From: Kiritimatiellia bacterium
Lineage (GTDB): Bacteria > Verrucomicrobiota > Kiritimatiellia > RFP12 > UBA3636
NCBI GenBank assembly: GCA_045589455.1
Contig: JAZNPC010000010.1
Span: 149 to 64,148 of the forward strand
Reading direction: 5' to 3'
DNA length: 64,000 nt
Below are positions 12,233 to 64,000 of the stretch, piece by piece (position 1 is the stretch's first letter; every line of letters starts with the position of its first letter). The notes below the pieces were generated by a model. It ran no database searches and had not been told where the DNA came from. It was given only the letters and a program-made list of their open reading frames with translations. The translations under genes were made by a program, and so were the position numbers.

Positions 12233-12242
12233 TAATAAAAAA

Positions 12243-12288
12243 AAGGGGCTGTTGCAAAACTCAAAAGATTTGCAACAGCCCCTTTTTT
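12243..12288. terminator. Bidirectional rho-independent terminator between convergent genes, with stem ggggctgttgcaaa…tttgcaacagcccc and A/T tracts on both sides
   Basis: A perfect 14-bp inverted repeat with a ~10 nt loop. It is flanked by aaaaaaa on the plus side and tttttt on the minus side. Confidence 0.8.
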
Positions 12289-45228: not shown

Positions 45229-45244
45229 AATAAATCTCCTTTCC

Positions 45245-46603
45245 TTATTCATAGCGAAGTGCATCAATTGGATTTAGACGCGCTGCACGCCATGCTGGGT
45301 AAAAACCAAAGCATACACCGATAGTGGCAGACACTGCCACAGCCATTGCTATTGCGCCAATAGATGGAGCAACTGGCCAGCCATTCATGCTTGAAACAAT
45401 TGTAGAACAAAGTCTTCCACCCAAAATTCCTAGCAAACCTCCAAGTAAGCAAAGTATCAATGATTCTACAAGAAATTGTATTAGAATATCCTTGCCCTTT
45501 GCTCCAACTGCCATTCTTAATCCAATTTCACGTGTGCGTTCAGTAACAGAAACAAGCATAATATTCATGATACCAACGCCACCCACAATTAGAGAAATAA
45601 GTGCAACAATTAACAATAGACTTGTCATTAACTCTGAGGTTTGAGTAAATGTGTTAAGAAGCTCAGTCATATCGCGAATTTCAAAGTCATTAGGCTCATC
45701 ATCAGCAAGCTTGTGACGTCTCCGCAATAGCTCTGTTATTTCATCAACAGCGCTTTGAATTGAGCTGGCATCTGTTGCAGCAACCATAATTTGATTGATG
45801 TTATTAAAGCGAATAGGCATTAGGTAGTTTTTGGATTGGGTAGCATCGCGAGTAGGATACAATTGTACAGCTTTTGTTGGGTAGCGATCTCCTCGAGAAT
45901 AACTACTAGAGCTTGATGAAGCTGTTGCTGCCATTCCTCCACCACGAGAAAGTCTGTTTCGCATAGTGGTCCATGGGATGACGATTAAATCATTTTGGTC
46001 CATGCCCATGAGATTAGCGCCTTTAGGAGCTAGTGTGCCACGTACGGTAAATATTACATTGTTCAAGCGGATGGTTTGTCCAATAGGTGAATCTTCTCCA
46101 AATAACTCTTTAACTACAGTTTGACCTAGCATACAAACACAGGCTGCTGTATTAACATCTAGTGCTGTGAAAAATTCTCCCTCAGCAAGCTCCCATTCAT
46201 TAACATCAAAATATTGCTCATTACCAGATGCAATCTGTCCTGGAGTCCAGTTTTTATTTCCATAAACTGCTTGAACCGTTGCTCCACGTACAACAGGTGT
46301 TGCTGCTTTAACAGATGGACACTCACGAATGATTGCATCGCAGTCTGCACTAGTAAGTGTAATGCCAGTGCCTGAACCAGTACTAACACCTCCAGTACGT
46401 ATCGATGTAGGGGAAATCATGAGCATATTTGAACCCATATTTGAAATTGAGGTTTCAATTTGCCCTTTAACACCAGAGCCGATTTCCATCATCGTAATTA
46501 CGGCTGCAATACCAATTACAATGCCTAACATTGTAAGGATAGATCTTGTTATATTTCTACGCAATGCCTTGATTGCTGTTATAAAGGGTTGTGTAATATT
46601 CAT
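45245..46603 (-). CDS. MacB/FtsX-family ABC permease
   Basis: 452 aa with the same architecture as the 23631..24908 product (GGVGIMNIMLVSVTERTREIGLRMAVGA). Confidence 0.9.
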   Translation of the reverse strand: MNITQPFITAIKALRRNITRSILTMLGIVIGIAAVITMMEIGSGVKGQIETSISNMGSNMLMISPTSIRTGGVSTGSGTGITLTSADCDAIIRECPSVKAATPVVRGATVQAVYGNKNWTPGQIASGNEQYFDVNEWELAEGEFFTALDVNTAACVCMLGQTVVKELFGEDSPIGQTIRLNNVIFTVRGTLAPKGANLMGMDQNDLIVIPWTTMRNRLSRGGGMAATASSSSSSYSRGDRYPTKAVQLYPTRDATQSKNYLMPIRFNNINQIMVAATDASSIQSAVDEITELLRRRHKLADDEPNDFEIRDMTELLNTFTQTSELMTSLLLIVALISLIVGGVGIMNIMLVSVTERTREIGLRMAVGAKGKDILIQFLVESLILCLLGGLLGILGGRLCSTIVSSMNGWPVAPSIGAIAMAVAVSATIGVCFGFYPAWRAARLNPIDALRYE

Positions 46604-46604
46604 T

Positions 46605-47306
46605 TTACACCTCCTTTATTAAATCGCTATTAGCGATAAGTCCATCCTTGATATGAATTGTGGTTTTTGTATAATCACAAACCTCAGCATCATGTGTTAC
46701 AAGAATAATTGTAATATTATCCTCTTTATTGAGCTGCTGAAACATTCTTAAAATTTCATCGGTTGTAACAGAATCAAGATTTCCAGTTGGCTCATCAGCA
46801 AAAAGAATTTTTGGTCGATTAATCAGTGCTCGGGCTATTGCAACACGCTGCTGCTGTCCACCGGAAAGCTGAGCAGGGTGATGGTGCATTCGTTCCTTTA
46901 GACCAAGCCTTATTAATAGCTCTTCTGCCCATTCTTTGTTTTCCTTCTTGCTTGCTCTTGTTTTGCTATATTCGAGTGGCATTAGCACATTTTGGAGCGC
47001 AGATGTACGAGAAAGCAAATTGAAGTTTTGAAATACAAAACCAATTCTGCCAGAACGAAGCTCAGCACGCTCATTTGCGGAAATGTTAGCCACATTTTTA
47101 CCATCTAACCAATATTCGCCAGAGGTTGGGTTGTCAAGAAAACCAAGAATATTCATAAGAGTTGATTTTCCAGATCCAGAGGCACCCATAAGAGCAACTA
47201 GATCGCCCTGTGCAATGCTAAGGGAAATTCCTTTTAGAACAGGAACTTCTAGCCCACCATTAAGCTTATAGGTTTTTGTAAGGTTTTTTAACTCAATTAA
47301 ACTCAT
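46605..47306 (-). CDS. ABC transporter ATP-binding protein (MacB-type)
   Basis: Walker A (GASGSGKST), signature ([15 protein letters not shown]), Walker B ([11 protein letters not shown]). Confidence 0.92.
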
Positions 47307-47373
47307 ATTTTCCTCCTTTCCAAATTAATGCAAAGGCTTATTAATGATAGTAGTGTATATACTATTACTATTG

Positions 47374-48654
47374 TTAGCGGCGAGGAGAACTACCTGAGCC
47401 TCTCTTAGGCTTTGGCATATTTGGCATAAATGGATTCTTTGTTTCAGATTTACTATCATCTTCAGATATTACTTTTGATGATGTAATGATTTCCATTCCT
47501 TCAACAAGCTCAGGCGATTCAATCGCTGCCATTGTGCCATTATTGAGTATTACATTAACCTTAATTGGGCGGATGTTGCCATTTGCTTCTTTAATATGAA
47601 CAATTGCTTCATTTGGGGCTATATCTGGTAAAGGAGCTCCAGCAGGTCTCCATCTAATAGCTCTAGCAGGGATGATTAGAGCATCTTCTGCCTTTTCAAT
47701 TTCAAAAAGAACATTAGCTGTTAGATAAGGTATTAGTTCCATATTTGCATTGTCCACATCAATCTCAACGATGTAGGTAACAACATTGGAGGTTATTGTT
47801 GCATTGTAGCGTATACGTTTAACTGTTCCCTCATATACTTTTCCTGGGAATGAGTCAACAGAGAAAGAAACAGACATGCCTTCTTTTATGCTACCTACAT
47901 CTGCCTCATTTACAGCAGCCCAAATTTGCATTTTATCTAATTCTTTTGCTACTAAAAACATTGATGATACAGACATACTAGAGACAACGGTTTGTCCTAG
48001 GTTTACTCTACGATCAATAACAACACCATCAACGGGAGATGATATTGTGCAATAAGCAAGATTTCTTTCTGCCTTTTCTACATTTGCCCTAGCTTGCACC
48101 ACCTGAGCTTCAGCTTGAAGAATTTTGGCTTCAGCTGAAATTTTGTCAGCAACAGCAATTTTATAGCTTGCTTCATATGCATCATATGAGCTTTGTGAAA
48201 GAGCAGGGCCAACACCAATCTTTTGTGCTCTATTCCAATCCTTTTCTGCTTGCCATAAACGAGCCTCTGCTTGTTGAACAGCAGCCTGTGCAGCTGTAAC
48301 ATTTGCTAGTGCATTACTATATGAAGCTTGAGCAACTTCAAAATCTGCTAGATATGTCACATCATCAAGTTTGGCAAGAATCATTCCATTTGTAACAGTA
48401 GAACGATAATCTATTGTGTTGCCATTTGTATCCGTACCAAATGATATAATTTGTCCAGAAACTTGAGCACCCACGTCAATTAGTTCCTCTGGTTCTAGAG
48501 TGCCAGATGCAGAGATAGTTGTCGCTATTGTACCGCGAGATAGCTTCTCTGTTGTATAAACTGTTACTTCTTCGTTACCTTTGAGTAGTACAGGTAGCGT
48601 AATTGCTCCTATTATAGCAATCCCTAATATTATAAATATAACCTTCTTTTTCAT
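47374..48654 (-). CDS. HlyD/MacA-type periplasmic adaptor
   Basis: N-terminal TM anchor and a coiled-coil region (AAQAAVQQAEARLWQAEKDWNRAQ). It is the first gene of a four-gene minus-strand efflux operon that ends with the TolC-like gene. Confidence 0.85.
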   Translation of the reverse strand: MKKKVIFIILGIAIIGAITLPVLLKGNEEVTVYTTEKLSRGTIATTISASGTLEPEELIDVGAQVSGQIISFGTDTNGNTIDYRSTVTNGMILAKLDDVTYLADFEVAQASYSNALANVTAAQAAVQQAEARLWQAEKDWNRAQKIGVGPALSQSSYDAYEASYKIAVADKISAEAKILQAEAQVVQARANVEKAERNLAYCTISSPVDGVVIDRRVNLGQTVVSSMSVSSMFLVAKELDKMQIWAAVNEADVGSIKEGMSVSFSVDSFPGKVYEGTVKRIRYNATITSNVVTYIVEIDVDNANMELIPYLTANVLFEIEKAEDALIIPARAIRWRPAGAPLPDIAPNEAIVHIKEANGNIRPIKVNVILNNGTMAAIESPELVEGMEIITSSKVISEDDSKSETKNPFMPNMPKPKRGSGSSPRR

Positions 48655-50246: not shown

Positions 50247-50510
50247 CAGCTAGCGTGATGCACGTGACGCCGAAGGGACGCAGAGACGCAGAGACGCAGA
50301 GCTAGCGTGATGCACGTGACGCCGAAGGGACGCAGAGACGCAGAGGGCGCGGAGGACGCGGGGCTGGTGTGATGGGTGTGGTGTGGGGCGCGAATGCGCA
50401 CATTCCCGCTTGTTGTTGCCTGGGTTTATTGCGAAATCTAACGAAGCAATAAGGCAACTGCCAAGCGCTAATGTGTATGACCCACCAAGGCTTTTGAGGT
50501 TGGGGGCGTG
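50247..50510. repeat. GC-rich ~260 bp intergenic repeat element, copy B. It has an internal duplication of the agctagcgtgatgcacgtgacgccgaagggacgcagagacgcagag segment
   Basis: Near-identical to 24990-25230. It lies immediately 3' of the fucosidase gene, at the transition to the AT-rich island. Confidence 0.85.
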
Positions 50511-51192: not shown

Positions 51193-51504
51193 TTGAATAG
51201 CAAGTTTTCTACAATAGAAAAGTTAAAGCCTTATTGGGACGATTTTAAAACAATTTTCTCTATGATTAAGGATTGCGTTACTGGAAAGTATAAAGAAACA
51301 CCATTTACAACAATTGCTAGCTTAGCTGGTGTATTAATTTATGTTCTTTCTCCAATTGATTTAATGGCTGATTTCATTCCACTTCTAGGATATGTGGATG
51401 ATGCTGCAATCTTGGGTCTTGCCATTAAACTAGCTGCTGCAGATATTGAAAAATATCGTCAGTGGAAAAAGACAATAGATGTAGAAGAAAAGCAGGTCAA
51501 CTAA
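51193..51504 (+). CDS. YkvA/DUF1232-family small membrane-associated protein. The frame is disrupted relative to an upstream ATG
   Basis: Carries the SPIDLMADFIPLLGYVDDAAILG motif characteristic of DUF1232. The annotated frame begins with TTG. A strong AGGAG RBS plus ATG at 51083 lies in the +1 frame, and the two frames would join if the A6 run at 51118-51123 were A7. Confidence 0.6.
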   Translation: MNSKFSTIEKLKPYWDDFKTIFSMIKDCVTGKYKETPFTTIASLAGVLIYVLSPIDLMADFIPLLGYVDDAAILGLAIKLAAADIEKYRQWKKTIDVEEKQVN

Positions 51505-51584: not shown

Positions 51585-52172
51585 ATGAATAACATAGATA
51601 CTGGCCACGGAGCTGAAATTGCAGTAGGCTTAAGGAGTTGCTCTTCGATTATCCTTGTCCCTATTATTGCAATATGCTCAGGCATTATCATTGGTAAAGA
51701 GTACGGAACAGTTGTTGGTATTCTTGGTGGTATTGTTTGTAGCTCTATCTTTTTTAAGCTTTACCATAGGTTTATCGCTACGCAGATTAAAGGACTTACA
51801 GTACTAGACTGCTTGATTCCGTTTTTAGTTTCACTCGTTTCTGGTGTCATTTTTGCTCCAGTGTCACTTTTTTCAGCTAGTGTCTTTTCAATAGCCACAT
51901 GTATTTACTCTGGAGTACTATTGTCAGCAACACTATTCTTGTATAAGGCACAAAAAGTGTCTGTAGGATACCTTGTATTCCCATTTCTAGTCTTTATGTA
52001 TGAAATATTACCTATAGAGCTACCAACGGATCTAGATAACATATTTGCGCTTTCTGGTAATACAGTTCATCAGTTTATTGCATTAACTGCAGCTAAGATG
52101 AAAAAATCGCTCTCTAATGATTCTCCTACCTCAACAGATGACGAGACCATTATTGATGTCGACCCAGAGTAG
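51585..52172 (+). CDS. Polytopic membrane protein of unknown function
   Basis: 195 aa with 4-5 hydrophobic helices and an acidic C-terminal tail. It lies within the AT-rich island. Confidence 0.5.
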   Translation: MNNIDTGHGAEIAVGLRSCSSIILVPIIAICSGIIIGKEYGTVVGILGGIVCSSIFFKLYHRFIATQIKGLTVLDCLIPFLVSLVSGVIFAPVSLFSASVFSIATCIYSGVLLSATLFLYKAQKVSVGYLVFPFLVFMYEILPIELPTDLDNIFALSGNTVHQFIALTAAKMKKSLSNDSPTSTDDETIIDVDPE

Positions 52173-52248: not shown

Positions 52249-53868
52249 ATGTGTTTATGGATTGTTGTTGGTTCTATTTTAGCATTTATTATAACAATAT
52301 GTATTATGTATTGGAATGTTGTTAAAATTTTATTAATTATAGTTGCTATAATTTATGTGCTATCTTTATTAGTCAGCTTAATTAAAAAAGTAATTAAAAA
52401 GGTTGAGCATGAAAATGAGTTGAAATTATTTGCTATAAATGAAGAGAATAAAACCGAAGAAAAAAAACAAAACATAAATTTCAAAAAGTTGTCAAATATA
52501 CTTTTTGTATCAACAATAGATTTAAGAGAGCATCCATTAAAAAACGAAAAGTATAAAAAACGTAAACAATATTTTGAAGTATTAATGTTTCTAATTAATA
52601 ATTCAGTGATTTCAGAAAAATTGAAAGATTTTACTGAAGGTCGTTTATCTATGTATTTTGATTGTTTGTTGCCTGAATTGATGTCTGAAAAGAGTGAAAT
52701 ATTAAATCAAAAAATAGAAGAAAAGGTTTTTATAAAAAAATTAATGCCTTTGTTTTATTTTGCTAATGTAAAGTATTCATATATATTTCTGTCAGATTTG
52801 TGTTTGTTTCTTCAAGAAGAATCGCTAATTTCATATGCAATAGTTGTATTAAAACGATATCTACCCAAATTTATGTGGGCAAAAATAGATAAAAAATATT
52901 ATAGAATTAAAAATTTATCAGTAATATCTGAAAAATATAAGCAGATTGCTGTTTTAATAGAGCAATATAAAACCAATATTGAATTTTTTGCTAGAAAGGA
53001 AAAAAGGGTAATTGTTACAGCTCTTGTTAGTGCAGGAAAATCAACACTAATTAATTCTTTAATTGGAGAAAGATTAACTAGAACAAAATCGGAAATTTGT
53101 ACAAGTAATTTGGCATACATATATAATAAAGCCTATAATGATGGGACCCTTCATTTTTATCAAAATGATAATAAAAAATCTTCTATAAACCAATGTGTGT
53201 GCTTTAATGCAAGTGAAGATGACATAAATACTTATGATATAAATGAAAAAATAAATGTTTCTGCATCGTTTTTAGGTGTTTACTCAAATTGGTCTAGAAT
53301 TTGTTTAATAGATACACCAGGGGTTGATGCTGCTATTAATGTGGAACATGGGGAGTGTACAAAAAAAGCTCTTTTAAATGAGTGTTATGATATGATTCTT
53401 TATGTGGTAAGTCCAAATCAAATAAGTACGGATTCACAAAAAGAATATTTAAAATGGATATTAAATAATCTTCCTAAAAAAAAGATAGTTTTCGTTATTA
53501 ATAAATTAGATACATTAAAACCTAAAGAAGATAGTATAGCTGATACAATATTTAATTTTTATAAAGATTTATGTGATATCGGTTTTAAGAATCCTACTAT
53601 TTGTCCAATATCTTCTTATTTTTCTTTCTTATTAAAGCAAAAAATATCAGGAAAAGACTTTTCCGAAGATGAAATTGACGATTTTAGGTTTTATAGTAGT
53701 AGGTTTTCTAAACCATTTTATAATTTATCAGGATATTATAACGAAGAATTAGAAGATATTAATCTTGAAATAAATGATTTATTGCAATTAAGCAAACGTT
53801 GTGGTTTATATGGTATTGAAAAAATAATAAATGAGGAAATAAATGAAAAAAATATTTATAAAATATAA
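52249..53868 (+). CDS. Bacterial dynamin-like GTPase 1, N-terminally membrane-anchored
   Basis: Two N-terminal TM helices. The dynamin-type G domain has G1 (ALVSAGKSTLINSLIG), G3 (LIDTPGVD) and G4 (FVINKLD) motifs. The 3' end overlaps the next gene. Confidence 0.8.
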   Translation: MCLWIVVGSILAFIITICIMYWNVVKILLIIVAIIYVLSLLVSLIKKVIKKVEHENELKLFAINEENKTEEKKQNINFKKLSNILFVSTIDLREHPLKNEKYKKRKQYFEVLMFLINNSVISEKLKDFTEGRLSMYFDCLLPELMSEKSEILNQKIEEKVFIKKLMPLFYFANVKYSYIFLSDLCLFLQEESLISYAIVVLKRYLPKFMWAKIDKKYYRIKNLSVISEKYKQIAVLIEQYKTNIEFFARKEKRVIVTALVSAGKSTLINSLIGERLTRTKSEICTSNLAYIYNKAYNDGTLHFYQNDNKKSSINQCVCFNASEDDINTYDINEKINVSASFLGVYSNWSRICLIDTPGVDAAINVEHGECTKKALLNECYDMILYVVSPNQISTDSQKEYLKWILNNLPKKKIVFVINKLDTLKPKEDSIADTIFNFYKDLCDIGFKNPTICPISSYFSFLLKQKISGKDFSEDEIDDFRFYSSRFSKPFYNLSGYYNEELEDINLEINDLLQLSKRCGLYGIEKIINEEINEKNIYKI

Positions 53869-56134
53869 CCCTTATTATTTGGAAACAAAATTTACTATAG
53901 ATGGTAAATCTCTTCCTACAAATAGTGAAATTAATGCACGTATTAATCAACCTGATGTGCGTCTACAAGAGTGGATAGAAGATTTACCTCAGCTTTTGAT
54001 TGATGAATGTAACGATAAGAAGTTTGACATTCAATTTCATGGTACTATATTAGATTACGAAGATGTTAAAGAGGTGTTTGAATGTGCTTCTAATGAAGAA
54101 AAGTTAGAGGTGAAGCTAGATAGAATACCTGCAAAAGAAACATCTGAAAAGGAATCTTTAATTGAAGATGTATTTAAAGAAATACAAAATGGACCTATTG
54201 ATGAACTACGTGATGAGAAAATAATTAATGCATTTAATAATGCAAAAAATAGTGAGTTTGAAATTTGTGTTGTAGCTACAATGAGTGCAGGTAAGTCTAC
54301 ATTGATAAATTCAATGCTTGGAGACAAAATGATGCCTTCAAGTCAAGAGGCTTGCACGGCCATTATTACTAGAATTAAAGATGTTGATTCAAATGTTAAT
54401 TGGCATGCTAAAGTATTTGGAAAAGATAACGAACTATTAGAATCAGTTGAAAGTCTTACATATGAAGAGATGGATAGATTTAATAGAGATTCTAAAGTAT
54501 CTTTAATACAAGCCGAAGGTAATATTCCTTTTGTAACCTCACAAAAAACTTCACTAGTTTTAATTGATACTCCTGGTCCAAATAATTCTAGAGATAAAGA
54601 ACATGAAAAAGTTCAAAGTAGATTTTTAGGTAAGTCGTCTAAAGCACTTGTCCTTTATATTATGGAAGGGACATATGGAAATAATGACGACAATGAATTG
54701 CTTCGTAAGGTTGCAGAGAGTATGAAGTCAGGCGGAAAGCAATCTAAAGACCGTTTCCTTTTTGTTATAAATAAGGTTGATGATCGTAAGCAAGAAGATA
54801 GTAAAATGGAGGATATGCTTTTAAGAATTAAGGACTATTTACAAATACATGGAGTTAAAAATCCAAATTTATATCCTGCAGCAGCTTTACCCGCACTTAA
54901 CATAAGATTAATGCAATCACATAATGACATTCTTGATGAAGACATTCTTGATGAAACAGAATTTAAAGTTAAAAAGTTAAATAGAAATGTTGATTTGCAT
55001 TTAGAAAAGTATTCTTCATTACCATTAAGCCTTAGAAGAAAAATTGATTCTGATTTAGAAATTGCTAAAAATAATGGAGATGTGTTTACACAGGCCTTAA
55101 TTCATACAGGAATAGTTTCTGTTGAGACGGCGATTCGTCAATATGTTGAAAAATATGCAAAAACAGCGAAAATTAAAAATATTGTAGATACTTTTAAAGG
55201 AAAATTAGAGGCTGTTTCTTATGAACAAGAAATGAAGAAAGAGATTGCTAAAAATGAAGAAGAGTGTGAAAAGATTACTGCACAAATAAGTTCGATAGAG
55301 AGTCAAATTAAAGACGGAAAAAATGCTCAAGTATTTAAAAAAGAAGTTTCAAAAGCATTGAAAAAAGTTAAAAAAGAAATAGAGGAAAAGATTAATCAAA
55401 ATGTAGAAGAGTTTCAAAATGAATTATTGGAAATAATTAACACATATGGGAATGATGATATTCCCGTTGAAAAAATCTCTTCAATTTTGTCTCAGGTAAG
55501 TAAAAAGGTAAAGTCAATCGAAGCAAATTTTCAAGTTGCTTTAGAGGGATCAATCAATACTGGATTAATATCAACAAGTAAATATCTTTTAGAAGAGTAT
55601 AAAACAAAACTATCATCGTTAACAAAAGATATAGATTTGAAAAACCTTTCAGGAGTTTTTATTGACCCATTGAAGTTAATGTCAGGTAGTGTTCCAAGTA
55701 TAGATAGCTTAAATATTGATGTAGAAGAAAAAGAAGAGGTAGTAGGTGAAGAATGGATTGAAAATACAAACAAAAAATGGTGGAAGTTTTGGACTTGGTT
55801 TGATGATCCTGGTCATTATATAACAAAGTATAAAACTGTAAAATATGTTTTAGGTAGCGAATTAGCTCAAGAAATGCTCGCACCTATAGAGGATACATTA
55901 ATTCAAAACGGAGAATCTGCATTAAAACAAGCGTTATATCAATCTCAAAGAATAGCGGAAAAATATGAGAAAGAGTTTGTTCGTTTAGATGATGTATTGA
56001 CAAAAAAATTGCGTGAGTTAAAACAAATTACTTCTGATAAAACAAACAAAGAGAAGTTGATTAACGATGCACAAGGAAAATTAAATTGGTTAGATAATAT
56101 TAAGAAAAGAGTTGATTCGATTCTTGAAATATAA
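53843..56134 (+). CDS. Bacterial dynamin-like GTPase 2 with a long helical stalk
   Basis: G1 (VATMSAGKSTLINSMLG), G3 (LIDTPGPN) and G4 (FVINKVDD). There is about 440 aa of charged, coiled-coil-like C-terminal sequence. The start overlaps the preceding DLP gene by 26 nt. Confidence 0.85.
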   Translation: MKKIFIKYNPYYLETKFTIDGKSLPTNSEINARINQPDVRLQEWIEDLPQLLIDECNDKKFDIQFHGTILDYEDVKEVFECASNEEKLEVKLDRIPAKETSEKESLIEDVFKEIQNGPIDELRDEKIINAFNNAKNSEFEICVVATMSAGKSTLINSMLGDKMMPSSQEACTAIITRIKDVDSNVNWHAKVFGKDNELLESVESLTYEEMDRFNRDSKVSLIQAEGNIPFVTSQKTSLVLIDTPGPNNSRDKEHEKVQSRFLGKSSKALVLYIMEGTYGNNDDNELLRKVAESMKSGGKQSKDRFLFVINKVDDRKQEDSKMEDMLLRIKDYLQIHGVKNPNLYPAAALPALNIRLMQSHNDILDEDILDETEFKVKKLNRNVDLHLEKYSSLPLSLRRKIDSDLEIAKNNGDVFTQALIHTGIVSVETAIRQYVEKYAKTAKIKNIVDTFKGKLEAVSYEQEMKKEIAKNEEECEKITAQISSIESQIKDGKNAQVFKKEVSKALKKVKKEIEEKINQNVEEFQNELLEIINTYGNDDIPVEKISSILSQVSKKVKSIEANFQVALEGSINTGLISTSKYLLEEYKTKLSSLTKDIDLKNLSGVFIDPLKLMSGSVPSIDSLNIDVEEKEEVVGEEWIENTNKKWWKFWTWFDDPGHYITKYKTVKYVLGSELAQEMLAPIEDTLIQNGESALKQALYQSQRIAEKYEKEFVRLDDVLTKKLRELKQITSDKTNKEKLINDAQGKLNWLDNIKKRVDSILEI

Positions 56135-56145
56135 AGGAGTATATT

Positions 56146-56664
56146 ATGCCTTTAACTAAAGCATTTTATGAAGCAATAAGAACAAAAAATGTTCGTCGAG
56201 TTAGAATAATGTTAAAAAATAGCCTTGTTGTTGATCCATCCTTTTCTGAATATAAATCAATGATTGATATTGCATCTAATTTAGAAGGATTGTTTGATGA
56301 GCATGATGGAAAGATTTTTAATAATGAAAAAAGTTTTTGGAACGATGAATATGTAAGTAAAGAAATGGCAAGACTTATTTCTAATTTTTCTAAGGAAAGA
56401 ATTGATCATTTAAAGGATGTTATTCGTTTCTTGAATCCGATGAATACTAATCAACAAAAGCATTATGGTAAATCCAAAAGGTTTTCACATCAAAAGAGAA
56501 AAATAATTACAGGAGCAGTTGTTGGTGCTACAATTGGTGCATTGTTAGGTAATGTAATAAATGACGAGAATGGAATTGTGTCAGTATTATTCGGAGTTGC
56601 AGGAGCTATAGCTGGTAGTGTTGTTGTGAATTGTATCTCTAATGAGGATAAAGGAAATGAGTGA
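56146..56664 (+). CDS. Small protein with a C-terminal glycine-zipper membrane segment
   Basis: 172 aa. The N-terminal ~120 aa form a soluble domain, followed by ITGAVVGATIGALLGNV…VLFGVAGAIAGSVVV (GxxxG repeats). There is an AGGAG RBS. Confidence 0.6.
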   Translation: MPLTKAFYEAIRTKNVRRVRIMLKNSLVVDPSFSEYKSMIDIASNLEGLFDEHDGKIFNNEKSFWNDEYVSKEMARLISNFSKERIDHLKDVIRFLNPMNTNQQKHYGKSKRFSHQKRKIITGAVVGATIGALLGNVINDENGIVSVLFGVAGAIAGSVVVNCISNEDKGNE

Positions 56665-59600
56665 TAGAGTTGTTTTGGTCAAAGACCATAATTTGAACAA
56701 TTCAATTTTGACGGATGATAATCTTATTGGACAAGGAGAGGGTAAATTTCCTTCGATAACTAAATTGGAGTCAAATTTAAAAGAATCAAGTAAGCTTGTA
56801 CAAGATATTGTTTTGAAAAATTATTTACACAAGTTAAAAGATTTAGAAGTTGTTCCTTTGCCCAATGAATTCAAAGATATAAATAAGCTTCGAATTTTTG
56901 AAATAAACGAAATGGTTTATCAAAAGGATGAATATTCAACCTATAAATTTGCTTCTGTTTTTAGCTCTTTACAAAGCTTAGATTGTGGAGTGTTTATTAT
57001 TGTCAATAGCAATGGAGAAAAAACAGATTTTTATATGGGAGTTCGTTCTAAAGATAATAATCGTACTACTAAATCTTTAAAAGATACTTTGAAAAATGCT
57101 TTGATTGGGCATTTCCCTGGTGTTAAAGTGAAAGATATGTTAGACCCAGAAGTAGAGGATTTTTTATCTGAAATTTCAAAAAATAATGTATCTTCAGTAT
57201 CATGTATTGCTAATAATAAAGATGAAGATTTTAAGAATAATGATAATTTTATCCAAGGTCTTGAAAAATTGGCTTTAGCAATGCAAGGGAAAAAATATAC
57301 TGCTATAGTGCTAGCAAACTCTATTAATAATAGTCAAATTTCGGATGTTCGGAGTGCTTATGAAACCATTTACACTCAGATATCTCCTTTTGCTAATATG
57401 CAACTTTCATATGGGACGAATACTGCTTTAAGTATTTCTGATGCTTTGTCTAAAGGAGCTACAACAGGAAGTTCTTATTCTAAAAATATAGGTACTTCTA
57501 GAGGAACTTCAACATCAAGTGGGGATACATATTCCGAATCAGCTTCAAAGCCTGACATTTTATCTTCTGGATTAAAGATTGCGGGGGCTGCTATTTTAGG
57601 AGCCGCTGCTATAGCTACTGCTATTCCTACAGGAGGGGTTAGTTTAGCAGTAGCTGGAGCAGCTATAGTGAATTCAATTCCAATGGTAACCAAAACCAAA
57701 GGTCGTTCTCACTCAAAAAACAAATCTCAAAGTGTAACATCTAACGAAGGTGAAACATTTGGAGAAAATTCTAGTACTTCTGAAAATGCTACCCATACTA
57801 TAGGAGAAACCATTGGAAAAACAGAAAATATGCAGTTAACAATGCAAAATAAAACATTGTTAAATACATTGGAGAAAATAGATTGTCAGTTACAACGTCT
57901 TAATGAGTGTGAAAGTTTAGGGATGTGGGAATGTGCTGCGTATTTTATGTCAGATAGTTTAGAAACTGTTGAGATGGCCGCAGGAACATATAAGGCTTTA
58001 ATGAAAGGCTCTAAATCAGGTGTTGAAACATCCGCAATTAATACTTGGGGATGGTATGAAAAAAATAAAATTCCAATATTATGTGAATATATTACAAATT
58101 TTATACACCCAATATTTGCCTACCCTACAGATGGAGAATTTATCCCAGTGACTCCAGCATCAATGGTAAGTAGTAATGAGCTTGCAATTCAAATGGGGTT
58201 GCCTAGGAAATCTGTATGTGGTTTTCCTGTTGTTGAACATGCTGAATTTGGAAAAGAGGTTGTTTCTAACTTAGACATTAAATCCTCAAGAACTATTCCT
58301 ATTGGGAATATTTTTTCTATGGGTTCAGAAACAAAAACACCAGTTAAATTAAGTATAGATTCATTGACAATGCATACATTTGTGACTGGTTCAACAGGTT
58401 CAGGTAAGAGTAATACATTATATGAGATTTTGTATCAATTGCATAATTTCAATAATGTCCCTTTTCTAGTAATAGAACCAGCAAAAGGTGAGTATAAAAA
58501 CATTTTTGGAAATTCTCATAATGTGTCAGTATATGGAACGAATGCAAAGAAAACTGAGGTCTTAAAAATAAACCCTTTTAGTTTCCCAGATGATATTCAT
58601 GTATTAGAGCATTTGGATAGACTAGTAGAAATATTTAATGTATGTTGGCCAATGTATGCTGCGATGCCCGCAATTTTGAAGGAAGCAATTGAAAAGGCAT
58701 ATATTTCTGTTGGTTGGGATTTGATTGATTCAATAAATGTCAATGGAAATATATTCCCAAATTTCACTGATGTTTTAGAACAAATTGAGATTGTTATTAA
58801 TGAGTCTCAATATTCAAAAGATTGTAAAGGAGATTATTCTGGTGCTTTAACAACGAGAATTCGCTCTATGACAACAGGTTTAAATCGTCTTATTTTTACA
58901 CAAAATGAAATTTCTAATTCTGATTTATTTGATAAAAGTGTTATTGTTGATTTAAGTAGAGTTGGATCTACAGAAGAGAAAGCTTTAATTATGGGAGTTC
59001 TTGTAATGAAGCTGAATGAATATAGAATGACATCAGGGAAGATAAATAGCTCATTGTCTCACATAACAGTTTTGGAAGAAGCACATAATTTGTTGAAGCG
59101 TACATCAACAGAACAAAGCTCAGAGAGTTCAAACCTTCTTGGTAAATCAGTAGAAATGCTCTCAAATTCTATCGCAGAAATGCGTACATATGGAGAGGGA
59201 TTTATTATTGCTGATCAAGCACCAGGTTTGTTAGACATGTCTGTAATACGAAATACAAATACAAAAATTATACTTCGTTTGCCAGAGAAAAGTGATAGAG
59301 AATTAGTTGGTTATGCTGCTTGTTTAAAGGATAATCAGTTAGATGAAATCTCTAAGCTGCATAGAGGCGTTGCGGTAATATATCAAAATGATTGGATAGA
59401 GCCAGTTCTTGTACAGATTAGAAAATGCAATTTAGAAGAGAATTCTTATTCATACAACCCGCCATCAAAACAAACATCAAAACCGAATGTCTTGAAGCAA
59501 TTGATAAATTTTTTAATATGTAATAATGTTAGGGAAAAATTAGATTTCTCTATTGCAGATATAGAGCAAGGAATAGATTTTTTAGCTTTGTCTTCGTCAA

Positions 59601-59950
59601 ATTTAAATTTTATTAAAAAACTACTTGGAGAATATAAAAAGTTTAATTCATTAGAAATATGGAGTAACCATAAATATAATTCACTTGCTTTAAATATAGT
59701 GAATATTCTTAATCTTAGAAATAAAATTGAGCAATTAGTTTTAAATTCATCTAATAACTCATCGTTAACACATGATTTAAAAGAAATTGTTTTAGATATA
59801 TTCCCAAAATCTTCTGAATCATTTATTATGACTTTAATACATTTGTTTATGAAGGACTTTAGTTTAAGTCGAGAGGAAAATGAACAACGTACTAAAATAT
59901 ATTTAAATTGGTTAAGTTATATTACAAAATATGGAGTAAAAAATGATTAA
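56657..59950 (+). CDS. Large fusion protein with an N-terminal unknown domain, a Gly/Ser/Thr-rich glycine-zipper hydrophobic segment, and a C-terminal HerA/FtsK-superfamily (DUF87-like) ATPase
   Basis: The ORF runs from 56642. The ATG at 56657 has an AAAGGA RBS. The hydrophobic Gly-zipper segment is LKIAGAAILGAAAIATAIPTGGVSLAVAGAAIV. Walker A (VTGSTGSGKSNTLYEIL) is encoded at about 58384-58410, and Walker B (ITVLEEAHNL) at about 59059-59085. The 3' end overlaps the next ORF by 8 nt. Confidence 0.8.
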   Translation: MSDRVVLVKDHNLNNSILTDDNLIGQGEGKFPSITKLESNLKESSKLVQDIVLKNYLHKLKDLEVVPLPNEFKDINKLRIFEINEMVYQKDEYSTYKFASVFSSLQSLDCGVFIIVNSNGEKTDFYMGVRSKDNNRTTKSLKDTLKNALIGHFPGVKVKDMLDPEVEDFLSEISKNNVSSVSCIANNKDEDFKNNDNFIQGLEKLALAMQGKKYTAIVLANSINNSQISDVRSAYETIYTQISPFANMQLSYGTNTALSISDALSKGATTGSSYSKNIGTSRGTSTSSGDTYSESASKPDILSSGLKIAGAAILGAAAIATAIPTGGVSLAVAGAAIVNSIPMVTKTKGRSHSKNKSQSVTSNEGETFGENSSTSENATHTIGETIGKTENMQLTMQNKTLLNTLEKIDCQLQRLNECESLGMWECAAYFMSDSLETVEMAAGTYKALMKGSKSGVETSAINTWGWYEKNKIPILCEYITNFIHPIFAYPTDGEFIPVTPASMVSSNELAIQMGLPRKSVCGFPVVEHAEFGKEVVSNLDIKSSRTIPIGNIFSMGSETKTPVKLSIDSLTMHTFVTGSTGSGKSNTLYEILYQLHNFNNVPFLVIEPAKGEYKNIFGNSHNVSVYGTNAKKTEVLKINPFSFPDDIHVLEHLDRLVEIFNVCWPMYAAMPAILKEAIEKAYISVGWDLIDSINVNGNIFPNFTDVLEQIEIVINESQYSKDCKGDYSGALTTRIRSMTTGLNRLIFTQNEISNSDLFDKSVIVDLSRVGSTEEKALIMGVLVMKLNEYRMTSGKINSSLSHITVLEEAHNLLKRTSTEQSSESSNLLGKSVEMLSNSIAEMRTYGEGFIIADQAPGLLDMSVIRNTNTKIILRLPEKSDRELVGYAACLKDNQLDEISKLHRGVAVIYQNDWIEPVLVQIRKCNLEENSYSYNPPSKQTSKPNVLKQLINFLICNNVREKLDFSIADIEQGIDFLALSSSNLNFIKKLLGEYKKFNSLEIWSNHKYNSLALNIVNILNLRNKIEQLVLNSSNNSSLTHDLKEIVLDIFPKSSESFIMTLIHLFMKDFSLSREENEQRTKIYLNWLSYITKYGVKND

Positions 59951-60896
59951 TAATTTTGACATTAGTAATATCAATAAATTTAACAATGAACTAAAGGATT
60001 GTAATTTATATAAGCAGATTGAAGGAGAAGATAAAAAAAAATCAGGAATAGAAAAATCTCTGGATAATGTTTGTACTCAAGAAACAAATCCAAGTGTTGA
60101 TGAACAAGGACATGTATATAGAAAAGAGAATGGAGATTTGCTCCCTAATAATAATTTCGTGATGGGTGAAAATACATTTAAAACAGATGATAATGGCAAA
60201 ATCTACGCTATAGATGGAAAACTTGTTCCAGAAAATAAGTATGAATTAAATTGTGCTTCGTATGAAACAGACGAATTGGGACGTATTAGAAAAGTAGTTG
60301 CTCAAGACTTAAAGATAACACCAGAAAACTTAAGAGATTCCACAGCACAAACTTTAGTTGGCGGCAAAGATAGATTGCTAGGAGATAATGGCGGTCATTT
60401 GGTTGCTCGTATACATGGGGGCGATGCTGGTATTGGAAATCAAGTAGCTGTTCGCGACGTAATTAATAAAGGTGATTGGAAGATTGATGAGAATACAATA
60501 AGTGATTTAATAAAAAAAGGTAAAAATGTCAGGACGGAAGCGGAAATTTTTTATGATGGTAATTCTGAGCGACCATCTAAAATAGAGATTTCAATCTATT
60601 CTAATGGAGAAAAAATAAGCGAAGCTGTTTATGATAACAATATTGGATCGAAGGATTTATTAGGATTGGAAAAACTTAAAGATATATTAAGCCCTAGTGA
60701 TTATCAAAACCTTTGCGATGAAATTTCTCAATTAGAAAAAAATGGAGATAAGGTTAGTATTACTTCTGTAACATTTAAGTCAGGAGAAGATCCTTCAATA
60801 GCAGTGAGAAATGAAACAACGGAAAAAACTTGTTATTGGCCATGGAATACACGCAATGAAGGAAAAACATTGAGTGATGTATTTCACAATTCATAA
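59943..60896 (+). CDS. Putative effector protein translationally coupled to the HerA-like ATPase. It carries a His/Gly/Asp-rich patch compatible with a metal-dependent (His-Me-finger-like) nuclease or hydrolase
   Basis: 317 aa with a GGAG RBS. The conserved-looking segment is KDRLLGDNGGHLVARIHGGDAGIGNQVAVRD. The functional call is speculative. Confidence 0.55.
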   Translation: MINNFDISNINKFNNELKDCNLYKQIEGEDKKKSGIEKSLDNVCTQETNPSVDEQGHVYRKENGDLLPNNNFVMGENTFKTDDNGKIYAIDGKLVPENKYELNCASYETDELGRIRKVVAQDLKITPENLRDSTAQTLVGGKDRLLGDNGGHLVARIHGGDAGIGNQVAVRDVINKGDWKIDENTISDLIKKGKNVRTEAEIFYDGNSERPSKIEISIYSNGEKISEAVYDNNIGSKDLLGLEKLKDILSPSDYQNLCDEISQLEKNGDKVSITSVTFKSGEDPSIAVRNETTEKTCYWPWNTRNEGKTLSDVFHNS

Positions 60897-60916
60897 ACAA
60901 CAGGTAGGTGTAAATA

Positions 60917-61309
60917 ATGGAAATAACTATAACCTATGAAGAGGTTTCTAATATAATAAAAACCAAATCTAATGTAAATGCGACATTTACAATGATTGAC
61001 AGCGAATCAATAAGTGTTAAAGTTAAACCTGGATTGCTTATTCCTGCGGTTAATATAACCTTAAAATTAGAAAAAGATGCTAAAGAGTATAAAATTCGTT
61101 ATGGCTCTGGTGTTGTGTCTCTTCTAGTAACAAAAATAGTAAATTTGTTCGTAAATGATAAACTACCTGAATTTGTCAGATTAGATACATCGAATAATAC
61201 TTTATCTTTTGATTCTACAATTAAGCATAATGGGATTGTTGTAGATATTAAGGATATTACATTTTTAGAAGAAAAAATTTCAATATCTTTATTTTTAAAA
61301 GATTTGTAA
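60917..61309 (+). CDS. Small hypothetical protein of 130 aa immediately downstream of the putative effector, a possible partner or immunity-like protein
   Basis: ORF with an AGGTG RBS. No motifs recognised. Confidence 0.5.
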   Translation: MEITITYEEVSNIIKTKSNVNATFTMIDSESISVKVKPGLLIPAVNITLKLEKDAKEYKIRYGSGVVSLLVTKIVNLFVNDKLPEFVRLDTSNNTLSFDSTIKHNGIVVDIKDITFLEEKISISLFLKDL

Positions 61310-61734
61310 AATTATCAGTCATCTCATATTGCTCAACCTAAATTCGGTGTTGCGCATCTGAGTTATTCACCAGATTATTCTAATGTCAAAATCATCACTT
61401 AACAAAATCAATGACCGGCTTTAATTATGCTACAATGAAGGGTTAAAAAAAGCAACAATCAAAGCATTGTCTCCTAAGTATTATGTATTTGTAGAAGTTT
61501 GATAGGTTTTTGGAATAAAAATCATTGTCTATTTTATTAGAGTTAGTATTGTGATTTGTAAGCATTTGTAGTTGTATTTTTGTTCCACCTTCCATAAGAT
61601 TTATTCGTCAAATGAGGAATAAACAAATGTAGGCGGGATGTGCTGCTAGGGTTCCGTGAAATCGCCAAGGCCGTATTTCGGCAATATGATGAATGACCTA
61701 ACACCATTCCGCTTACTTCTTTTAAGGAGATTAT

Positions 61735-62451
61735 ATGAACGAAAACATTTTGCAAGCAAAACTAGATAAATTGTTTGATAATTGGAAGGCAGCAATAGAT
61801 GCTTGTCCAGAAATTCCTGCAGAAATTAAGGAATGCTTCGTGCGCGATGGCTTCTATCCAGGCTACCTAAACCAAAAGTGTAAGGTGCTGTTTGTGGCTC
61901 GCGAATCACTTAGTGTTGAAGGAGATTATATAAAAGAGGTTTTTGATGCATATAAAAGTAAACGTGTTGGTGGCAAAAATATCAATCAGTATCAATTCCA
62001 TGCGTTAATGATGTATATAGCATATGCTCTAAATAATAATTGCTTTGATTGGAATAGCATTCCTTGGGCAGAAAAGCTCTGCGAGACATTTGGTACGCCT
62101 GGCGGACTTAGCTTCGCTTTTATGAATTTGTCTAAATTCAGTAATTGGTCGAAATCTAGTTGGCAAAGTAATTGGAATTTGATAAATTCTTCTCTAAATG
62201 TTAGTGGCAACGATTCTTTCATCAAACAGGAAATTGAATTGCTAGACCCAGATGTAATTATTACTATGAATTTAGATGGTAATTTAAGTTACTTGGGTGA
62301 AATGCGCAAGATTGTTAATACCACCGATATCAATAAATATGCTTACAAGATCAATGGTAAGGAAATACCTCTCTACGATATGTGGCATTTTTCTGCCCCA
62401 AGTAAGTCGCCAAGAGGAAATTATTTGGAGCCACTTAGTAAATTAGTTTAA
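61735..62451 (+). CDS. Hypothetical protein of 238 aa
   Basis: Strong AAGGAG RBS and AT-rich codon usage consistent with the island. It has a weak resemblance to a nucleotide-binding-fold N-terminus (KVLFVARES) and a WHFSAPS segment. No confident assignment is possible. Confidence 0.55.
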   Translation: MNENILQAKLDKLFDNWKAAIDACPEIPAEIKECFVRDGFYPGYLNQKCKVLFVARESLSVEGDYIKEVFDAYKSKRVGGKNINQYQFHALMMYIAYALNNNCFDWNSIPWAEKLCETFGTPGGLSFAFMNLSKFSNWSKSSWQSNWNLINSSLNVSGNDSFIKQEIELLDPDVIITMNLDGNLSYLGEMRKIVNTTDINKYAYKINGKEIPLYDMWHFSAPSKSPRGNYLEPLSKLV

Positions 62452-62465
62452 AAGGGAGAAAAAAC

Positions 62466-62666
62466 ATGGCAAAGCAACGTGTTGATTTGACAGATAAGAA
62501 GTGTGCTACCTGTCGTTGGTGGCAAGGTGATCGTGAGGTGATATTTTGGTCTCGTAAGCCATTTAAAGTCGAGTGCGATGCACAAGGTATGTGTCCATCC
62601 TGCAAGCAAAATAAGACCTATAGCTTTAGCTGCAGAAATTGGGTTCCATGGGAAAAGCTTCCATAA
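62466..62666 (+). CDS. Small zinc-ribbon protein with CxxC…CxxC
   Basis: 66 aa with KKCATCRWW…GMCPSCKQNK. A GGGAG RBS precedes it, 14 nt after the preceding gene. Confidence 0.5.
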   Translation: MAKQRVDLTDKKCATCRWWQGDREVIFWSRKPFKVECDAQGMCPSCKQNKTYSFSCRNWVPWEKLP

Positions 62667-62749
62667 TGCTACGTTTGACAGTTAATTACTGAATTTAGAT
62701 TAAAAATATAAATGAGGTTTTATAACTTAAAGTAAGGAAAAAAGTAATA

Positions 62750-64000
62750 TGAGAAGTTGTCTAACTGTGTTTTTAGGAATCGTTATTATTGGTGCTATTC
62801 TTCTGATATATTTCTTTTGGGAAGCAATAATAGCGTTATTATTAGCGTTGTTACAAATAGTTTTGACATTTATTGCAATAGTGGTGGGAATTGTGGTAAT
62901 GATTGCTGTAGTAAGTTATTTTAGGAAAAGAAAAATAAAAGAATTAGCACGCTTAGAGCGGGAAAGAAATGCTACATTAGAAAATAGAATTCGAGAAGAA
63001 GTTTATATACCGGTTCCTGAATATGCAGTTACATCTAACAATTATTATGAATGCTTACACATTCTTGAAGAAGCTGCAGATTATAAAAGAAGGATTGAAA
63101 ATGCTTCATCAAAGCTTGAAAAGAGCCAATTAAAAAATGAGTTGTCTAATTTCAGGCTTAAATCATTCTATGTTATTTCTCTACGTCATGAAGTTGATGA
63201 AGAAAAATGGGCGTCTTATGAAACAAAGATTAATAATATTTTATCTAAAAATGGTGATTGGAATTTGCTAAGAATAGAAGATAATGAAAAATCATTAGTT
63301 ACTGGAAAATACGAAGCTAAAGTAAAAAATAATTTAGGTAATATAACATTGAGGCTTGAGGATAATAATATCGATGATGTCATTAAAAGAGTTGATTTGA
63401 TTAAAGATTTTGATACATCAGGTATTTTTACAACGCACAGTTTGACTAAGCTTAATGATAAAACAGAACAAATGACTAAATGTTATGATTCTATTGAGAA
63501 GAGGTATAAAGAGCTATCGGATGTGGGTGAAATAACTAATAAGATTTTGGTAGAAGCTCGTGGTGCTGCATATCGGAATATTTTCTTAGGTGTAGAACTT
63601 TTGAATTATATTAGAGATAATTCTGGAGGAACGGGGCTAAAGGTTCAACATGATTCGGTTGATATGCAAGAAATTAATCTTTCAACAGATATTCCATTAA
63701 GTAGTTTGAATATTGATTTTGGAGAAGTTTTGAAAGTGGGTTTGTTTAACAAAGAAGGCACTAAAGCTATTTCAAGAATTTTGAAAAATCCTAAGAGTAT
63801 TGGTTACAATAGTGCTTTAATTGGCATTTCTGTTGCAAAAGAACTTTTAAAAGCACGTAATAAAGCAATTCAGGCAAATATAAAACAACAAAAGGAACTG
63901 ATAAAATGTATTGACGATGCTTGTAAAAATTATACAAATACTCGTGCTCAAATGTTTAGAGCAATTGAAATAGTTAAAGCGATTGTTCATTCAAATGCAG
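62750..64000 (+). CDS. N-terminally membrane-anchored protein of unknown function (partial; it continues beyond the window)
   Basis: ATG at 62750 after an AAGGA RBS. Two N-terminal TM helices (LTVFLGIVIIGAILLIYFFWEAIIALLLALLQIVLTFIAIVVGIVVMIAVV), then more than 350 aa of charged sequence. There is no stop before the window end. Confidence 0.6.

Follow-up and report, generated by a model that had tools for sequence, protein, structure and literature searches.

The window analysed here, the whole stretch of 64,000 nucleotides (nt) taken from contig JAZNPC010000010.1 of a Kiritimatiellia bacterium, contains at 52249–61309 six co-oriented and close-packed genes of the forward strand, the junctions between them measuring −26, +11, −23, −8 and +20 nt. 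The first two encode dynamin-like GTPases, a short one of 539 amino acids (aa) at 52249–53868 and a long one of 763 aa at 53843–56134, hereafter DLP1 and DLP2, respectively, whereas the remaining four encode a small membrane protein, a P-loop ATPase of the HerA/DUF87 type, a putative polymorphic toxin and its presumed immunity protein. Judging from the sequences, the GTPase pair represents the first two genes of a widespread mobile dynamin–HerA–toxin–immunity operon of six genes. The pair itself had been noticed in a first-pass annotation of this DNA, which gave the limits of both open reading frames (ORFs) and the 26 nt that they share exactly; the overlap suggests that the two genes may be translationally coupled.

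The dynamin-like pair and its partner genes

The search against the Pfam family Dynamin_N that the first-pass annotation had called for returned 58.9 bits (E = 8e-16) for DLP1 and 61.5 bits (E = 1.3e-16) for DLP2, the cut-off being 27. As also described there, both translations carry the complete G1, G3 and G4 motifs: SAGKSTLINS (S261/G263/K264/S265), DTPG (355–358) and NKLD (418–421) in DLP1, and SAGKSTLINS (G150–T153), DTPG (242–245) and NKVD (310–313) in DLP2, the G1–G4 residues being unvarying in the alignments of 31 DLP1 and 41 DLP2 family members. At the level of sequence both proteins belong to the dynamin superfamily, on the side of the bacterial dynamin-like proteins (BDLPs) and mitofusins.

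Concerning DLP1, a transmembrane hairpin (residues 1–50) is followed by a helical part (~83–250), the G domain (~254–460) and ~80 further residues. The hydrophobic helices of residues ~1–50, reported by the first-pass annotation as two N-terminal transmembrane helices, are backed by hydropathy; they are, however, a feature of the window lineage only, i.e. of one among 73 homologues, the other 72 beginning at approximately window residue 83. The extension of 82 codons stays open in DNA of 25% GC, for which the probability of chance was estimated at ~5e-4. The protein is 40–41% identical to the DLP1 of loci L001 and L004.

DLP2 was modelled with AlphaFold2 from an alignment of 41 sequences (pLDDT 81, pTM 0.65). 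The model contains an N-terminal alpha/beta domain (1–96), the G domain (~138–345) and a long helical stalk, the last having already been recognised from the sequence. A beta-hairpin at residues 628–670 flanks the tryptophan-rich motif WWKFWTWF, found in 58 of 83 homologues, and this element likely serves for membrane insertion; contact of the pair with a membrane is suggested by the same motif together with the transmembrane hairpin of the window DLP1. In Foldseek, the full-length model matched SynDLP, IniA, BDLP, dynamin, Cj-DLP1/2 and mitofusins (E from 5e-13 to 1e-9), the probability being 1.00 for the first five named. Relatives of DLP2 are counted in thousands, with 636 clusters at 50% identity at E < 1e-30 and 526 loci in species-representative genomes.

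Natural fusions of DLP1 with DLP2 were found in five cases (P0003, P0121, P0131, P0132 and P0145). Since such fusions exist and both proteins keep all their catalytic motifs, DLP1 and DLP2 most probably act together. It should also be mentioned that P0130 and P0156 (1408 and 1464 aa) have three G domains in a single polypeptide, and that the DLP2 homologues of loci L008/L064 from Fretibacterium (1101 aa, 10001–13306) contain a duplicated G domain.

The third gene (56146–56664) encodes the small membrane protein of 172 aa, composed of a cytoplasmic N-terminal domain of ~110 aa and a C-terminal glycine-zipper transmembrane hairpin, the transmembrane segments being located at residues 120–166 by hydropathy. 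Its Pfam matches, to glycine zipper 2TM and SLATT_1, are sub-threshold; the possibility that it is a SLATT pore effector was rejected on that ground (17 bits vs 26).

The fourth gene (56642–59950) encodes the HerA/DUF87-type ATPase of 1102 aa (Pfam DUF87, E = 9e-15, together with matches to HerA structures in the PDB). It consists of a conserved N-terminal domain (~55–260), a serine/glycine-rich region with a transmembrane hairpin (~306–350), a middle domain (~400–540), the ATPase core (~550–930) and a fast-evolving C-terminal tail (~935–1102), no family match having been obtained for its N-terminal half. The Walker A (GSTGSGKSN) and Walker B (VLEEAH) motifs are invariant in 34 sequences, and the score for FtsK_SpoIIIE, 22.2 bits, lies under the cut-off of 24. 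Residues 410–928 also align with the NCBIfam model NF033849 'serine-rich protein' (ser_rich_anae_1, a model of 1163 aa) with E = 6e-24; this is below its cut-off and hints that serine-rich, membrane-anchored HerA-type ATPases form a larger family, so far uncharacterised.

The fifth gene (59943–60896), sharing 8 nt with that of the ATPase, encodes the candidate toxin of 317 aa with an Endonuclease_NS_2 DNA/RNA nuclease domain at residues 99–220 (E = 1e-20). The sixth (60917–61309) encodes a protein of 130 aa that is presumed to be the immunity protein from its position, since it has no family match. A 23-nt inverted repeat, 83% complementary, has its arms at 59950–59972 and 61373–61395, that is, 7 nt inside the toxin gene and 64 nt past the immunity gene, so that it brackets the swappable toxin–immunity module; it could be a chance occurrence in AT-rich DNA or a footprint of recombination.

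Conservation of the cassette and polymorphism of its toxins

The same co-oriented gene order was recovered by ORF calling in about 70 loci fetched around the homologues, their hosts being Clostridia, Bacilli, Synergistota, Spirochaetota and Proteobacteria. An upstream gene of ~320 aa is followed by DLP1 (~440 aa), DLP2 (~765 aa), one or two small membrane proteins, the ATPase (~1100 aa), a gene of 160–340 aa in the position of the toxin and a gene of 90–160 aa in that of the immunity protein. Genes in these loci were called by a greedy longest-ORF procedure, with the consequence that start sites are approximate and a few genes were missed, e.g. the toxin of L004. An N-terminal extension of the Paenibacillus ATPase, considered as a fused small protein, showed no similarity to it and is probably an artefact of the same procedure. 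The small membrane protein is kept in nearly all loci with its ~110-aa N-terminal domain conserved, the overlap of the ATPase and toxin genes amounts to 0–8 nt, and a WYL/HTH/WCX regulator takes the upstream position in 28 of 31 loci but is missing from the window. In current annotation the genes are named merely 'dynamin family protein', 'ATP-binding protein', 'HNH endonuclease' or 'hypothetical protein'.

Fifty gene-5 proteins comprise 24 of the Colicin-DNase/WHH type, seven Endonuclease_NS_2, seven LHH, two papain-fold glutamine deamidases (Gln_amidase) and one metallopeptidase-like protein; among 46 gene-6 proteins there are 15 of the SUKH superfamily (SMI1/KNR4), nine DUF6985, two YezG-like and one PoNi. 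These families are the ones catalogued for polymorphic toxin systems (PMC3482391, PMC3113570), and gene 5 is accordingly taken as a polymorphic toxin and gene 6 as its immunity protein. The toxins start with a short (~45 aa), hydrophilic leader of the consensus M-I-x-N-F-x-E-V-x-E-x4-R-F-A-D-S-P-L-G-K, and one and the same leader precedes catalytic domains unrelated to each other (NS_2, WHH/Colicin-DNase and others). A conserved N-terminal region is thus combined with swapped C-terminal domains, as in polymorphic toxins sensu Zhang et al. 2012, and the downstream gene comes from known immunity superfamilies across the loci, the case of the window itself being positional only. The most telling comparison is that of L009 or L004 with L022: the ATPases are 86–90% identical (90% for L009/L022) and the leaders similar, yet the toxin domains are unrelated. 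Such an exchange of toxin domains between near-identical cassettes is the behaviour that defines polymorphic toxins.

A Pfam scan of the 50 toxins revealed no WXG, LXG, PAAR, RHS or other known trafficking domain, and neither a hydrophobic N-terminus nor a Sec signal was seen in the toxins checked.

With regard to the ATPase, its last ~170 residues evolve faster than the rest, being 35–44% identical to those of the window where the core is 62–72% identical. The idea that this tail co-varies with the catalytic domain of the toxin was refuted; the tails track the type of the leader. Leader type A (FADSPL-like at about position 16) occurs solely with tail cluster 0 (28 of 28) and leader type B (KAFEN) solely with tail cluster 1 (6 of 6). 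The ATPase core of L001 is 66% identical to that of the window, yet its tail belongs to cluster 1 and its leader is not of type A; L074 and L081 supply more changes of tail and leader. A matching between the leader of the toxin and the tail of the ATPase is therefore suggested, not conclusively, because the association is in part phylogenetic. It parallels the C-terminal variants of EssC in type VIIb secretion (T7SSb), which are reported to set substrate specificity (PMC5994694).

Hosts, mobility and the surroundings of the operon

The main hosts of the cassette are Lachnospiraceae, Oscillospiraceae, Clostridium, Paenibacillus and Bacillus, further ones being Fretibacterium (Synergistota), Spirochaetales, Planctomycetota, a betaproteobacterium and Succinivibrio. 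The full cassette is also present on annotated plasmids of Lactococcus cremoris B26 (pB26B), the enterotoxigenic Escherichia coli (ETEC) strain TW10590, Treponema saccharophilum and Bacillus sp. PGP15, with DLP2 identities of just 30–46%. It was found in one of 5426 complete E. coli genomes. That copy (L088; ETEC virulence plasmid pTW10590_133, NZ_CP035852.1, 49932–58331) is a divergent whole cassette, with a DLP1 of 324 aa and a small protein of 290 aa, lying beside the etpBA adhesin genes and IS66. On pB26B there is an abortive infection (Abi) gene nearby. The phage collection searched yielded no homologue.

The flanking genes vary between loci, recombinases, integrases and relaxases being among them; the cassette is therefore regarded as a mobile unit. 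The genes past the immunity gene are heterogeneous as well, which places the end of the cassette at gene 6. Additional downstream toxin/immunity modules were considered as a part of it and ruled out, extra WHH/Colicin-DNase ORFs having been seen in only two of 46 cases. Loci L024, L026 and L076 possess a second DLP2-like gene or a partial second cassette after the first, which indicates that some genomes carry the system as tandem arrays. In a sample of 135 neighbour proteins there were few PADLOC matches, mostly generic ones, and the Pfam assignments were mainly to housekeeping genes plus recombinases and integrases.

In the window, the GC content is 0.25–0.35 from ~51 kb to the end, compared with ~0.40 elsewhere, which bears out the AT-rich island noted in the first-pass annotation. 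The rest of the window contains chromosomal housekeeping genes (MetRS, PGI, GlgB, PtsP, a MacAB-TolC-like efflux, TonB/ExbD and a fucosidase); with genes of the host chromosome outside the region of low GC, the pair is concluded to sit in a horizontally acquired island. The annotation had favoured a conflict-type role of the pair over a housekeeping one and had pointed to other conflict-type genes beside it. The conflict-type assignment agrees with the differing flanks, the plasmid carriage and the adjacent recombinases, and such genes do exist; what has to be given up is the stand-alone pair, since the genes in question belong to the same six-gene operon, and this alters the functional reading.

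Immediately upstream of the cassette, where other loci have the WYL regulator, the window has two genes of the forward strand, the membership of which in the system is uncertain: one for a small DUF1232 membrane protein of 103 aa at 51193–51504 (Pfam DUF1232, E = 1.8e-12) and one for a multi-pass membrane protein of 195 aa at 51585–52172, recognised by its hydropathy segments and matching nothing in Pfam, PADLOC or NCBIfam. For neither was a counterpart found in the other ~70 loci. Taken together, the exchange of the upstream gene and the DLP1 hairpin suggest that regulation or membrane anchoring has been rewired in this lineage.

Past the cassette, on its downstream side, the island goes on with an ORF of 238 aa (61735–62451), without a match in Pfam, PADLOC or NCBIfam, and a cysteine-rich ORF of 66 aa (62466–62666), followed by ~1.3 kb of AT-rich DNA (62700–64000) in which neither an ORF longer than 60 aa nor a match in Rfam was seen. 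The Rfam scan of the island as a whole gave nothing, the window contains no tRNA genes, and scans for promoters and terminators in the AT-rich DNA yielded the same counts as in shuffled sequence. On the other side, the 46-nt GC-rich sequence AGCTAGCGTGATGCACGTGACGCCGAAGGGACGCAGAGACGCAGAG occurs in two perfect copies at 50248–50293 and 50300–50345, 52 nt from start to start, directly after the fucosidase gene and ~0.7 kb before the GC drop at ~51 kb; it is possibly a remnant of an insertion or attachment site. Just upstream of the island, the MacAB-TolC-like tripartite efflux operon (43822–48654, reverse strand) consists of genes for an outer-membrane factor, an FtsX/MacB permease, an ABC ATPase and a HlyD-type adaptor. 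It is apparently ordinary chromosomal content, and it confirms the host as diderm.

Relation to known systems and possible function

The first-pass annotation had described the pair as having an architecture like that of Eleos and LeoA-LeoBC. Eleos is said to be the LeoA plus LeoBC dynamin-like pair presented as an anti-phage system by Millman and colleagues in 2022, and the leo operon of ETEC H10407 is LeoABC. There are real points of likeness, such as two consecutive genes for dynamin-like GTPases with both P-loops intact, horizontal acquisition, a link to conflict, a sub-threshold match of DLP1 to the NCBIfam LeoA model, and matches in PADLOC of DLP1 to LeoA/LeoBC and of DLP2, weakly, to LeoBC. 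The label nevertheless has to be withdrawn. DLP1 scores 38.7 bits with the NCBIfam model LeoA/HP0731 (NF041922), the cut-off being 325, over residues 338–423 only; the PADLOC LeoA model covers 81 residues of its G domain, and PADLOC LeoBC matches DLP2 with E = 0.0013. LeoA is not among the sequence-profile or fold matches of DLP2 to solved structures. In Eleos two genes suffice (10.1101/2022.05.11.491447), whereas the pair described here is always accompanied by four more, encoding the membrane protein, the HerA ATPase, the toxin and the immunity protein. By these comparisons the pair is not Eleos/LeoA-LeoBC.

Among the dynamins, the BDLP branch—Nostoc BDLP (2J68), SynDLP (7ZW6), IniA from M. 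smegmatis (6J73) and Cj-DLP1/2 (5OWV)—shares the G domain, the helical neck/trunk and the membrane-inserting tip, and supplies the best fold and sequence-profile matches of DLP2, at 11–16% identity. The operonic pairing resembles that of Cj-DLP1/2 in Campylobacter and the occasional fusion that of DynA in B. subtilis. Unlike the BDLPs, DLP2 has an additional N-terminal alpha/beta domain, and in the model the beta-hairpin with the tryptophan-rich motif replaces the helical paddle; DLP1, a short protein, has no long stalk behind its G domain. With the DynA equivalog NF052648 the score is 41.3 bits vs 1600, and the window has two separate proteins, which sets the pair apart from DynA. To our knowledge, no BDLP shares an operon with genes for a HerA ATPase and for a toxin and its immunity protein.

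From the side of the ATPase and toxin, the closest resemblance in organisation is to T7SSb (EssC, LXG toxins and immunity proteins), where a membrane-anchored ATPase of the FtsK/HerA superfamily goes with toxins of a conserved N-terminal region and swappable C-terminal nuclease or deamidase domains, with adjacent SUKH- and YezG-type immunity genes and with an ATPase C-terminus that is variable and matched to the substrate (PMC3482391, PMC3113570, PMC5994694). The differences are, however, substantial. The cassette ATPase has a single DUF87/HerA-type domain, whereas EssC/YueA has multiple domains of the FtsK/SpoIIIE type, three in the variant described in PMC3482391; the 50 toxins have neither WXG100 nor LXG and their leader is just ~45 aa long; and the cassette contains two dynamin-like GTPases and occurs in diderm phyla. 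A Pfam scan of the cassette proteins of the window detected no T7SS component. With a single DUF87 domain and no WXG/LXG substrates, the system falls outside type VII secretion, and we know of no described secretion system that has two dynamin-like GTPases.

In the anti-phage complexes Sir2-HerA and DUF4297-HerA, too, a hexameric ATPase of the HerA family is found beside a toxic effector, and the PADLOC HerA matches have E-values of 1e-20 to 1e-12. With 60 bits against a cut-off of 800 for NCBIfam HerA_antiphage (NF042943), the ATPase is outside that family; it is twice as long as the anti-phage HerA proteins and differs from them in its novel N-terminal half, transmembrane hairpin and variable tail. 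Neither the window nor the sampled loci yielded a Sir2 or DUF4297 partner, the effectors being, in contrast to those systems, polymorphic-toxin domains with cognate immunity proteins. Of the trafficking modules catalogued for polymorphic toxin systems, none is employed by the cassette.

A membrane-anchored motor, a small membrane partner, leader-tagged toxins that have no Sec signal and are accompanied by immunity proteins, and two GTPases with intact motifs are the grounds on which the cassette is read as a machine for loading and delivering polymorphic toxins in which the two dynamins form the part that remodels the membrane. We would give this reading about an even chance. The catalytic motifs are intact in the ATPase as well as in both GTPases. 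The toxin would be made in the cytoplasm with the immunity protein already bound, and its ~45-aa leader, to judge from the co-variation, would dock on the variable tail at the C-terminus of the HerA-type ATPase, a hexamer that may be kept at the membrane by its own predicted transmembrane hairpin and the small protein with two predicted transmembrane segments. ATP hydrolysis would drive the toxin to or through the membrane. The GTPase heteromer, inserted via the tryptophan-rich element of DLP2, would bend, fuse or reseal the membrane with GTP; this remodelling would free or hand over the toxin, leaving the producer unharmed, and kin would survive by carrying the immunity gene. The more specific proposal of an undescribed delivery pathway, in which a HerA-type hexamer selects leader-tagged toxins and the dynamin pair performs GTP-driven fission, fusion or resealing so as to free them or pass them on to cells nearby, is put forward tentatively, its chances lying somewhat short of even. 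What the sequences show is the content, order and conservation of the genes, the domain identities, the polymorphism of toxin and immunity protein, the co-variation of leader and tail and the existence of DLP1–DLP2 fusions; that toxins are exported, in which direction they move and what the dynamins do is what we infer.

Several observations weigh against delivery. The toxins are small (~190 aa), have no receptor-binding or translocation domains and lack an export signal of any known type. The cassette has no outer-membrane component although it is found in both monoderms and diderms, the latter including E. coli, Treponema, Succinivibrio, Fretibacterium and the host of the window, with its TolC, TonB and ExbD. 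In the window itself, the leader of the toxin (residues ~1–45) is diverged and the immunity candidate of 130 aa has no match in Pfam, PADLOC or NCBIfam. The leader–tail co-variation partly follows the phylogeny of the subfamilies, with few independent swaps. Finally, the WYL/HTH regulator (28/31), the predominance of DNases and the carriage on plasmids would also suit defence, and complexes of HerA with effectors are known from phage defence.

Abortive infection, or anti-phage or anti-plasmid defence of an 'Eleos-plus' kind, is the main alternative, possible though rather unlikely. The dynamins would sense or counter membrane events caused by phages, the HerA-type ATPase would strip off the immunity protein or otherwise activate the nuclease, and the nuclease would cut the DNA in the infected cell, the immunity protein being an antitoxin and the leader merely a tether of the effector to the ATPase. 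The nearest solved relatives of the ATPase core are indeed HerA proteins, several of which we take to be subunits of defence complexes, and the PADLOC HerA and mad8 models match that core; yet no PADLOC system model spans the cassette, the LeoA match being confined to ~80 residues of the G domain and that of LeoBC being weak (E = 0.0013). WYL-type regulators occur with BREX and CBASS, and 38 of the 50 effectors are DNases. An unchanged cassette in monoderm and diderm hosts fits an intracellular role, and plasmid carriage, with the Abi gene near the pB26B copy, points in the same direction; on the other hand, the sampled neighbours are chiefly housekeeping genes and recombinases with few defence matches, and the phage collection contains no homologue. 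There is also the precedent of Eleos, a two-gene dynamin operon that shields B. subtilis from jumbo phages and needs both P-loops (10.1101/2022.05.11.491447). The toxin–immunity module also speaks against defence: immunity genes of the SUKH, YezG and PoNi types are a hallmark of toxins exported for use between bacteria rather than of effectors in defence, and so is a conserved leader with fast-swapped C-terminal toxin domains (PMC3482391). The membrane anchoring of the ATPase and of the small protein would also be left unexplained.

Two further explanations appear less probable still. Mobile-element maintenance or DNA transfer—a HerA/FtsK-type motor pumping DNA in a conjugation-like process, Ced-like uptake or exclusion, with the nuclease and immunity protein keeping the plasmid or island stable by addiction and the dynamins helping DNA to cross the membrane—is improbable. 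The ATPase is weakly similar to the TrwB, FtsK/SpoIIIE and CedD translocases, but far under the curated cut-offs (89 bits vs 600 for CedD), and some loci lie on conjugative plasmids beside relaxase and recombinase genes, whereas many are chromosomal and have no transfer genes. Toxin–immunity pairs can be addiction modules; such a module would, however, need no four large accessory proteins, and the leader conservation, the shuffling of toxin domains and the immunity families of exported toxins would remain without explanation. That the pair performs housekeeping membrane repair or fusion in the manner of B. subtilis DynA, adjoining unrelated genes by accident, is hardly credible. Both proteins are true dynamin-like ones, and fused relatives with two G domains exist, as in DynA; the adjacency, however, is kept across phyla down to 30% identity, a conserved synteny that already contradicts accident, while the sporadic distribution on islands or plasmids (1/5426 complete E. 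coli genomes), the GC content of the island far under that of the host and the NCBIfam DynA score of 41 bits vs 1600 all speak against it.

Polymorphic toxin systems and bacterial dynamins are each known on their own; their combination was not found described. Dynamin is nowhere mentioned in PMC3482391, the cassette is not covered in PMC9424270 and PMC11381338, and no paper joining dynamin-like proteins with HerA/DUF87 and toxin/immunity genes was met in a literature search that left subscription journals mostly uncovered. As far as we know, the roles of bacterial dynamins are largely undefined, the best-studied ones, BDLP, DynA, LeoABC/Eleos, IniA and Cj-DLP1/2, all lacking a cargo or a partner machinery that has been defined. 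In the present case a large dynamin family is firmly linked to an ATPase motor and to a cargo that can be recognised, namely the toxin and its immunity protein, which makes dynamin function testable, and tractable hosts carry the cassette: Lactococcus cremoris (pB26B), ETEC E. coli on its plasmid, Bacillus and Paenibacillus. If the defence explanation were true, it would tie Eleos-like dynamins to HerA–nuclease effectors. If, instead, the cassette loads and delivers polymorphic toxins, it would for the first time place bacterial dynamins at the core of a system for secretion or delivery, working in monoderms and diderms alike and spread by plasmids and islands in gut, rumen, oral and soil communities, and it would represent a new mode of trafficking for polymorphic toxins that bears on competition in the gut, in the rumen and in dairy settings.

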